DNA of 64,000 bases from Escherichia coli O157:H7 (lineage in GTDB: Bacteria; Pseudomonadota; Gammaproteobacteria; Enterobacterales; Enterobacteriaceae). Position numbers: made by a program. Shown here in pieces: positions 54,901 to 57,900 of this stretch. The stretch lies in NCBI RefSeq assembly GCF_013167455.1, contig NZ_CP038328.1; one strand, written 5' to 3'. Numbering within the stretch: the first letter of the stretch is position 1; every line of letters starts with the position of its first letter.

Positions 54901-57900
54901 GGAGCAGCCCTGACATCTGCACTGGCTCCGTTCCTGAAGGGGCGCGGAGGGGTTGACGTTGCGTCCCGTATATTACGCAATGCTCTGGTTCGCCAGCTGG
55001 CAATAACACCGCCTGAAATTGCCGGGGATTATCGTATGATTCTGGATGAATCCGGTGTGATGCCTGACCCCATGATGGTTCGTGATTGCCAGAGCTCTTA
55101 CACCCCTGCACAACAACTGCGCTTTCAGCAACGTCTGGATTACATTAACGGCATGCAGGAGTAATATTAATGGCACTTAAATGTCCCGAATGCGGTACGA
55201 CGGCACACGCCAGAACCTCCGCCTATGAAGCACCATCGGTTAAACGCTCATGGTATCAGTGCCAGAATCTTGAATGTTCCTACACATTTACCGCACTGGA
55301 AAGTGTGGATACGATAATCATGAAGCCCCGGCGCAATGAACAGGAATCAGAGAAAGCACAAATGCCGGAAAAACAACAGCAAACTCTCAATCGCTATGGC
55401 TCCGCGTCAAAGCTGTCAAGCCGTCAGCAAATTCCTGTCTGATTAGCAAAAAAAGCCCACGTAATCCCGGTCCAGTACTGGGATTTTTTACGCCTTTTCC
55501 CTGGCTGGCCTGAGAGCGCATGAGTGCATGTCTATAGCGCATGAAAACGCATGATTCTCATGCACCATTTTTGACGCGAAAGCCCTTGTGTGGTGGCTTC
55601 TGAGACGATTTGCGGAATGCATGAAAACCAGTCTGTTAAGCGAAGCGAGCAGGCGTGGGGGGCTGCGCGCGCTAAGGGGTTAGATTATAAAATATCAAAC
55701 GCCGGTGAGATCCATTATTGTGGAACCACCCGAAGGAAGTGTAGAGGCGAAAGTACCCAAAATAATTTTGCAAATTATTTAGAAATGAACTGAGCGCTCG
55801 AAACGAAATATAATTTCGAGCACCCCAATTAGCAGTTATATTTTTAATGTATTAAACAGGATAAAAACCAGAGCTTCCATTCTTATTTAAGTTATGGATT
55901 TTATTTGCATCATTAATTTTTATTTGGAACGTCGGACCTTTATTCTCAAGAATTACAATCTGGAAATTATAGTCCCTTTTGATTAATGCGTGATAAAATG
56001 AATCACTGAGACTGACGCTATTAACATCCGATAGAGAACCCCCTCTATCTTTATCAAAGTGCGTCACTAATGGACTATCAAGCACAACAAATCCAATGAA
56101 TGGATTCCCTTTTCTTGATAAAAATTCCGCAAAGCAAATGGTAAATATAGCATGCATTACTGCACGGGTACCTTTACCAAACATTCCTCGGCGTTTCCCA
56201 TTGATATTAAAGTCATATGTATCTTCGTCAAATCGCACTTTGTTATCTTTAGAATTTTCAAAATTTATATCATTCAAAAAGTCTTGCATCGCTATTTCTA
56301 TATCATACAAATCAGCTACTGTTAAGGAGTCAAAGTCCTCGGCGGAGTATTTAAGTTCGTCAACATCATCTTCTTTATCTTGTAATGAAGATAGAATGCT
56401 ATGTTTTGTGTGATCCATTAAAAGATTGTCTTTATATTCATAAAGTGATTCAAGAGATGAATGTATTGTTTTATATTTTTATCTTCTAACGTCTTAAAAT
56501 CACTTTTTTCTGATTGATAAATTTCATTAACATCATTTTTTCTTAACATAATTAATTCATGTTCGCGAACATTAGATCCGATTGATTCAATTAATCCTTT
56601 CAGCTGGCTTTTGATTTTCAATTTTTCTGCATTACACGACAAAAAACAATCATCATATGATATTTCATTTTCTTTTTTTTGCGGTGTATTACAGAACTCA
56701 CAATAAATATCTGCAAAATTATTTAAATAGAAATTCGCCTGTGATACAACATCTATTCTTTGTAGATCTATAAAGTATTGGTCTTTAAGAAGACTAAATC
56801 TTTCAATGAGTAATGATAAGTATTTTTCCCTGTCACTGATTGAATATAATTCATCACTTAACTCTTTTAATAATTGCTTCTTATCATCAAGTGCATCAAC
56901 AATACCTTTCAATATATCTTTCGATGATTCAATATCTTGCTCTACTTTCTCAAGTTCTCTTGAAACAATGACTTGATCATATTCAGGATAAATTAATTGC
57001 GCTTTCAATTCCTCATAAATATTTGCAATTTGATTTTTTTAAAAATATCTTGCTTTTTTATTTGGTTTTTCTGCTAAGGAGTTAGTATCATCTCTCTGAG
57101 TTAAAAGGAATTTAAATTCAGACTTTCTTTTTGTCTCCTCGCTAGGAATATCAGAAAGAATTAACGACTTCTCAGTTAACACTCTTAATTCATCAATACA
57201 AAAAAATTCAAAAACATTATTAAGATTAAATTTATGAAGAGTATTACTTAAGTTTGTTCTTACTTTAGCCTCTTTGAAATTCAACCTACCATAAAAGTAT
57301 GATGAAAAACTCTTTTTAGACGAAGCACTTTTGGAAAAAACCATCAACAGATTAGCTTCACTAACATTTTCAATGCTCGAATCATATAATCTGTAATGGG
57401 CGCTATCCTGAAGAGACCTCTCAATTGTCATTACCCTACCTTGAAAATTAAATTCCAGATAGGCTAAATCATAACCTTGAGCATGATCGATATCTTTATT
57501 TTTTAGTTTTTCACTCCCTAATAAATATCGAATCAAATAATATATGTATGTTTTTCCAGAGTCAGAACCACCATATAAAATAGTCAATTTAGAACCAAAT
57601 TCAATTATAGCATCTAATTTATTGAATCCGGTTACCTTTATTTTTCTGAACGTAAAAAAATTGTCATTCATAATTAAATTCCATATCATATTTGCCAATT
57701 TTATTTTTTATAATTGATTGCAACTGCTCATCAGGAATATCACTATATAACTTAACCACCAAATTTATATTATGCTCCATCTGCGCAACATATTCATTAT
57801 GTAGAGAATTTGTAAATGCATATGTTTTTTCAGAAGCTTTATATACAAAACCACGATGTGTATAAATTTTTGAGGCTAGTTCATAGCCTTGCAACAAAGC

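Follow-up and report, generated by a model that had tools for sequence, protein, structure and literature searches.

Probable terminase-recognition repeats in the cos packaging site of a P4-like satellite of Escherichia coli O157:H7

The packaging sites (cos) of phage P2 and its satellite P4 are the closest described counterparts of the element considered here, a cluster of GCATGA repeats in a P4-like satellite carried by E. coli O157:H7 (contig NZ_CP038328.1, of which a stretch of 64,000 nucleotides, hereafter the window, was analysed). Two papers (PMC9594776; PMC5694545) give P2/P4 cos a core of 55 bp with TGCATTAAAACC as its first element, and P2, P4 and 186 are reported to have only that core in common (for P2 and P4, PMC9594776). 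The site adjoins the psu/delta-int defence hotspot, as set out by Rousset et al. 2022 (PMC9122126). In phage lambda, according to another paper (PMC4856287), cosB carries the sites R3-I1-R2-R1, which are bound by the small terminase subunit gpNu1, together with a bend introduced by integration host factor (IHF). The record of the Pseudomonas phage phiCTX (NC_003278) annotates repeats R3–R6 immediately before cosR, and an IHF site in the same region. P2, unlike lambda, packages monomeric circles. A minimal functional cos of P2 is said to measure about 125 bp. The literature searched, which did not include the primary 1990 paper on P2/P4 cos, yielded no description of upstream repeats or of packaging direction.

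Comparison with these systems favours the reading, to which we give a probability of about 0.72, that the GCATGA/TGCATG cluster of the window is the distal subsite of the satellite's cos packaging site and provides recognition repeats for the terminase of its helper. The predicted cos module covers approximately 55526–55673, an extent shown by comparison with relatives. It comprises three YGCATG(A) repeats in direct orientation, set roughly a helical turn from one another (12 and 10 bp in the window, 13 and 10 bp in most relatives), followed by an inverted copy, some 70 bp of spacer, the further copy TGCATGAAAACC, which lies about 29 nt before the inferred nick, and a cohesive-end core. Its parts, and an extra repeat copy just upstream, are listed below, with distances in nucleotides from the proximal element.

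55516–55524, plus strand: extra repeat copy GCGCATGAG, at -101; not universal
55526–55531, plus strand: distal repeat 1, TGCATG, at -92; counterpart of the family's copy at -95
55538–55544, plus strand: distal repeat 2, CGCATGA, at -80; counterpart of the family's copy at -82
55548–55554, plus strand: distal repeat 3, CGCATGA, at -70; counterpart of the family's copy at -72 and left palindrome arm
55558–55564, minus strand: inverted copy TCATGCA, at -60; right palindrome arm, in a clade-specific position
55580–55599, no strand: spacer inverted repeat AAGCC-N10-GGCTT, centred at about -28.5; weak
55618–55629, plus strand: proximal element TGCATGAAAACC, homologous to TGCATTAAAACC
55638–55647, plus strand: tandem AAGCG AAGCG, where relatives have a single AAGCG; a 5-nt gain left of the nick region
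55647–55672, plus strand: variant cos core, with its CGCGCGC flank at 55666–55672

The stretch from 55516 to 55566 reads ctgagaGCGCATGAGtGCATGtctataGCGCATGAaaacGCATGAttcTCATGCacc. The first-pass annotation had given the sequence of the cluster accurately (GCGCATGAG at 55516–55524, TGCATG at 55526–55531 and GCGCATGAAAACGCATGATTCTCATGCACC at 55537–55566) and had correctly placed it between the delta terminator (55463–55489) and the hotspot cassette. The feature it described as a perfect 15-bp palindrome, GCATGATTCTCATGC at 55549–55563, proves to be an inverted repeat with 6-bp arms, GCATGA/TCATGC, separated by TTC, which is not palindromic. The cluster reaches past the range of 55516–55566 given there, with a sixth related copy, aTGCATGAAAACC, at 55617–55629, and this copy is the key to the interpretation.

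GCATGA occurs 36 times in the window on both strands, fewer than the mean of 48.7 in shuffled sequence, and five of these copies fall within 55518–55624, where 0.06 would be expected per 110-bp span (Poisson P of about 7e-9 per span, and of about 4e-6 after correction for the number of spans). No other cluster in the window exceeds two copies, and 200 simulations under a first-order Markov model never produced five. A functionless cluster, produced by chance or by a mutational artefact such as local duplication, would accord with the drift in copy number by local duplication that is seen among relatives, in which the copy at 55516 is not universal and one IMG/VR sequence (L078) has gained another. 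Against it stand the corrected P value, the simulations, and a conservation of position that reaches from elements of Enterobacterales to those of Ralstonia, and we count chance as excluded.

A BLAST search of an 800-bp region against a phage collection gave no match, because the likeness to P4 and P2 is too short and too divergent. When P4 and P2 were fetched by accession, their circular junctions rebuilt and the window aligned to them directly, the P4 junction matched at 52 of 79 positions in ungapped and near-ungapped alignment (BLAST, E 1e-4 in this small search space). The matching parts in the window are TCTGAG, TGCATKAAAACC, AAGCG, GGCG.GG.GGGG and CGCGCGC; homology to the 55-bp core runs from TGCATTAAAACC through the CGCGCGC flank. 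TGCATTAAAACC starts 29 nt ahead of the nick in both P2 and P4, and in BLAST comparisons of other P2-like phages with P2 this proximal element is precisely where homology sets in. The pattern TGCATKAAAAYC-N8-AAGYG is matched in the window at 55618, and the distance from TGCATKAAAAYC to CGCGCGC is 36 nt in P2, in P4, in the window and in a satellite from Mixta (L011). The cos sites of P2 and P4 further resemble that of the window in position, after the late operon and directly beside the hotspot, and in having the same proximal element, AAGCG, G-rich core, CGCGCGC flank and spacing of upstream repeats (the last also in 186). It is on such comparative evidence that the packaging signal, one of two roles first proposed for the cluster, finds its support.

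The canonical P2/P4 19-mer GGCGAGGCGGGGAAAGCAC had not been found by eye, and it is indeed absent; a variant cos core takes its place at about 55647–55672. P2 and P4 differ from the window in carrying the 19-mer, a single AAGCG and a core longer by about 5 nt. Measured against the TACGAG-type cos of other phages and satellites, the window core shows a duplication of AAGCG (+5) and a cohesive-end region shorter by about 5 nt, and the flank spacing stays at 36 nt. It agrees with the canonical 19-mer at 10 of 19 positions in an ungapped register and 12 of 19 in a shifted one, while other recognised cos types have 2–7 changes from the P2 19-mer; the cos core of this satellite clade is a distinct type. 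If the conserved distance is followed, the cohesive end would be the 19 nt from 55647, GAGCAGGCGTGGGGGGCTG; judged by likeness it would be GGCGTGGGGGGCTG, from 55652, and both placements rest on predicted nick positions. In the collection of 141 cos regions described below, this type was found only at loci with satellite genes (one of which also has phage-gene matches) and at no phage-only locus, and in IMG/VR the exact variant 19-mer matched nothing other than near-identical satellites and a single deletion derivative. At 55648 the O157:H7 copy carries A (aagcgaagcgAgcagg), where all 12 other distinct sequences of the clade have G, including the otherwise identical L007; this lineage-specific change lies in the predicted nick region and could affect cleavage.

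The family-wide arrangement of the repeats was examined in cos regions retrieved from IMG/VR with the proximal element and AAGYG only, to which delta-linked loci of other species were added. Positions 0–11 and 20–24 are thus fixed by the search pattern and all others are free, so the distal repeats could be tested without circularity. The 141 regions were thinned to a non-redundant set of 96, with a minimum difference of 15% over the 200 nt upstream, and tblastn classed these as 76 phages, 15 satellites and 5 that are unclassified or mixed. With the proximal element as anchor, a forward YGCATK is found at -95 in 63 of the 96, at -82 in 71 and at -72 in 74, against a background of 0.18 per position, and a reverse copy is found at -8 in 64. 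P2, P4 and 186 each have three upstream TGCAT[GT] copies. The feature derived here, three phased YGCATK repeats some 70–95 nt before the proximal element, is present in the window at -92, -80 and -70. A minimal P2 cos of about 125 bp would accord with a distal block at -124 to -95 relative to the nick. The last distal copy lies 72 nt from the proximal element in 74 of the 96 regions and 70 nt from it in the window, and the spacings compare as follows.

P2: distal copies 12 and 10 nt apart; last distal copy to proximal element 72 nt
P4: distal copies 13 and 10 nt apart; last distal copy to proximal element 72 nt
186: distal copies 13 and 10 nt apart; last distal copy to proximal element 72 nt
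Window (55526, 55538 and 55548 to 55618): distal copies 12 and 10 nt apart; last distal copy to proximal element 70 nt

Column information across the family is near zero upstream of -96, rises at the first TGCATG copy and is near zero again beyond +56. These edges coincide with variable hotspots, which precede the module in phages and follow it in satellites, and since the hotspots are on opposite sides, the common block of about 150 bp is what both kinds of element must keep. P2-like helper phages and P4-like satellites have this module in common and nothing else around it. A search for the motif in other satellites had been suggested as one check, with absence as the result that would count against it. 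The motif is present in satellites of Citrobacter, Enterobacter, Pseudocitrobacter, Mixta and Pantoea, which retain TGCATGtctatNNNGCATGaaaacGCATGa despite diverged flanks, and that challenge failed.

In 43 of the 96 regions, the best inverted repeat in the spacer has its centre at -30, and the 5-bp stem of the window is no better than those found in control regions. In many phages this repeat is GGCCCGCCAG-aact-CTGGCGGGC followed by TTTT, at about -40 to -20. Many spacers of the TACGAG type have two GATC sites just after the third repeat.

More distant members of the P2 family retain the arrangement with altered motifs. Ralstonia phage RSY1 (L145, 309–415) has TGCATA in three distal copies, spaced by 13 and 11, and TGCATA recurs in its proximal copy, which lies 71 nt beyond these and 29 nt ahead of the nick. 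Pseudomonas phage phiCTX (L148, 260–381) resembles the window as a P2-family phage with repeats before cosR and a proximal element, TGCAGAAAAAG, 29 nt from the nick, and differs from it in that the copies are YGCAGR and not YGCATG. Among the 96 regions, those with proximal TGCATG have G at base 6 in 168 of 176 distal copies (T in 2%), and those with proximal TGCATT have T there in 23 of 94 (24%). The motif thus appears to change jointly in distal and proximal copies, a suggestive pattern, such as a single co-evolving DNA-binding protein would produce.

This co-variation also bears on another conceivable role of the repeats, as binding sites for a nucleoid or architectural protein of the host or as a stretch with an intrinsic bend, in which they would aid cleavage at cos without contact with terminase. 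The near-helical phasing of 10–13 bp and the fixed 70–72 bp to the proximal copy would fit such a role, and lambda cos does use host IHF. The IHF consensus WATCARNNNNTTR, however, occurs neither in the module of the window nor in that of any of the 96 relatives, and the motif shifts between TGCATG, TGCATT, TGCATA and YGCAGR with phage lineage and host. Because these shifts are joint, a co-evolving phage protein fits better than a conserved host protein, and we regard an exclusively architectural role as unlikely.

Recognition by a helper terminase is also what the layout of lambda cosB brings to mind. There, as in the window, short repeats lie on one side of the nick, one of them close to it and the others some 70–100 bp off, a layout that implies DNA bending and binding by several subunits. 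The two sites have no likeness in sequence and belong to different terminase families, so that the resemblance would be one of function only. From the observed anatomy of the module, its conservation, its boundaries and the co-variation of its motifs, we infer a role in binding, bending and cleavage that could proceed as follows. The repeats would be recognition sites for the helper terminase, most likely for its small subunit gpM, several of which would occupy the phased distal copies together with the proximal one. The intervening DNA of about 70 bp would loop or bend, placing the distal array beside the proximal copy, and the large subunit gpP would then be positioned at the core to make the staggered nicks, after which the satellite genome would be packaged into helper-derived capsids. 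The repeat-bearing (right) end may act at initiation, in the manner of cosB, or also at termination, in the manner of cosQ.

Several points weigh against this proposal. A host DNA-binding protein could recognise the motif in place of terminase. The spacer of the window has no IHF consensus, which leaves the analogy with lambda incomplete and lowers the claim of a lambda-like site in detail, although not that of terminase binding. Of the 91 regions that were classified (76 phage, 15 satellite), five have at most one exact distal copy, although several of these five retain degenerate copies. The clade of the window is offset by 2–3 bp from the majority and is without the inverted copy at -8. Its cos core is non-canonical and, in the regions sampled, confined to satellites, so its function with any particular helper is putative. 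Finally, the sequences are related by descent, so that neither the positional counts nor the co-variation can be taken as independent observations.

Variation within the clade was followed in 12 full-length relatives and in a deletion derivative (L005) that is without the distal block. The extra copy at 55516–55524 has gone or carries mutations in L008, L010 and L036, is missing from L013 and has been duplicated once more in L078; it lies upstream of the boundary of family-wide conservation. In L013 homology to the window starts at distal repeat 1 (55526). Distal repeat 2 is invariant in all 12 full-length relatives. In L078, gcatgagt is duplicated in tandem, which gives one more repeat copy, and TGCATT replaces TGCATG in the proximal element. 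These differences show that repeat copy number drifts. In the IMG/VR contig L005, at 3100–3250, the start of the alpha primase gene is joined directly to a position 18 nt upstream of the proximal cos element, with the same cassette downstream; epsilon, the immunity region, sid, psu and delta are all missing from this derivative, as is the distal repeat block.

The inverted repeat that drew attention in the first-pass annotation is the least general part of the module, as the inverted copy occupies that place only in the satellite clade. The CATGC core of this copy (55558–55564) is kept in 11 of the 12 relatives, and the clade has no inverted CATGCA at -8, where most relatives carry one; the usual inverted copy is thus at -8 and that of the window at -60. 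The arms GCATGA-TTC-TCATGC together with ACCATTTTTG could alternatively form a small backup terminator that stops read-through from the delta operon before cos. A consensus scan does flag six pairs, a 3-nt loop and a T run there, and the ATTTTTGACGC tail is conserved within the clade. The hairpin is nevertheless weak (-6.7 kcal/mol, z -0.8, with 36 of 200 shuffles folding as well), and with the much stronger delta terminator only 60 nt upstream it would be redundant. Its arms are simply a pair of family-wide motif copies, without compensatory change in the clade; P2, P4, 186 and the TACGAG type lack a hairpin here yet keep the direct repeats, and the other four copies would be left unexplained. 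We therefore consider a terminator improbable and prefer to see both arms as copies of the proposed terminase-recognition motif.

The setting of the predicted cos module is that of a P4-like satellite with the order sid-psu-delta-cos-hotspot-int, confirmed by Pfam matches to Psu, Ogr_Delta, primase and integrase, by the RefSeq annotation and by RNAs. Its main features are the following.

49228–51618, minus strand: alpha primase
52365–52598, minus strand: C4 antisense RNA and isrK, a P4-type RNA immunity region
53864–54616, plus strand: sid-like gene
54613–55164, plus strand: psu
55170–55442, plus strand: Ogr/Delta zinc-finger gene
55463–55489, plus strand: intrinsic terminator of the sid-psu-delta operon, with a 9-bp stem AAUCCCGGU/ACUGGGAUU, a 5-nt loop and a U run
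55792–55825, minus strand: terminator-like hairpin ending the leftward-transcribed hotspot cassette, outside the cos module
55852–59017, minus strand: ABC-3C-type cassette
59131–60363, minus strand: integrase

The delta terminator (RNA fold of -13.3 kcal/mol, z -2.1) is conserved in relatives and is the upstream edge of the cos region in the satellite clade. RefSeq annotates no CDS between delta and the cassette, and Rfam gave no match in 55350–55900 up to E = 1. Relatives of this intergenic region occur in about 855 of 5426 complete E. coli genomes, and their likeness to the window stops at 55670–55681, where the variable cassette starts.

This neighbourhood also speaks to the second role first proposed for the cluster, that of operator sites at which a transcription factor of the satellite, the helper or the host would act on a nearby promoter, for example that of the hotspot cassette. 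Direct and inverted hexamers clustered about 10 bp apart are typical of operators, and the region is intergenic. The proposal found no support, since there is no promoter-like site nearby (no sigma-70-like promoter in 55100–56000, against 1.8 expected in shuffles) and no gene starts downstream. The minus-strand cassette genes end at the terminator at 55825–55792, so the cassette is not driven from the repeat cluster, and nothing is transcribed outward from it. The same block stands beside unrelated genes in 76 phage and 15 satellite contexts, at a fixed distance to the cos nick and not to genes. The Ogr/Delta site is TGT-N12-ACA, to which the repeats have no match. An operator is very unlikely on these grounds, and the repeats are better read as part of cos.

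Other observations concern the satellite itself. The window is 100% identical to O157:H7 chromosomes, and the site adjoins a tRNA-Thr gene beside proA. Rfam scored the C4 antisense RNA at 84 bits (52365–52452, minus strand) and isrK at 71.9 bits (52521–52598, minus strand). The gene order is sid-psu-delta, in place of the sid-delta-psu of P4, and delta specifies a single-domain protein of 90 aa, compared with 166 aa in P4. In 11 of 17 delta-linked loci from other species a further gene follows delta directly, so that cos is further downstream there; the cos regions of most of the 17 were still recovered by the pattern search. Three successive ORFs at 55852–57698 (minus strand; 219, 196 and 188 aa) bear an AAA_23/SMC-like segment on the N-terminal side and a weak DUF3732 segment on the C-terminal side, and resemble a single ABC-3C-type ATPase broken into three. 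In another O157 genome, a neighbouring cassette gene is annotated as frameshifted and an IS1203 family (IS3-like) element disrupts the integrase; the hotspot cassette may be decaying. Far from the satellite, at 34901–35100 (minus strand), is a full-length match to Rfam IS009 (190.8 bits).

The kind of signal described here is known, and its location is the expected one for such elements; it is not a new type of signal. What is new, modestly, is the explicit architecture of repeats across the family and the non-canonical, apparently satellite-only core of this clade. A motif cluster that lacked an explanation becomes an annotated part of the satellite, and the functional cos module would be about 150 bp, more than the cohesive-end core. 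For those who build P2/P4 cosmids or transducing particles, this suggests that keeping the upstream repeat block is advisable; a synthetic-biology paper reports that longer cos flanks transduce better (PMC9594776).

The repeats also offer a simple hypothesis, not found described in the literature searched, for how a P2-family terminase recognises DNA. It could be speculated, as a conjecture that lies on the doubtful side, that the phased YGCATG array and the nick-proximal copy form a recognition code of the P2-family terminase, that its variants TGCATG, TGCATT, TGCATA and YGCAGR help to decide which helper packages which satellite, and that the core of this clade is a satellite-specific cos variant. 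If that were true, such a variant, carried by about 855 of 5426 E. coli genomes and marked by compensating +5/-5 indels, would alter the competition of these satellites with particular helpers or their dependence on them.

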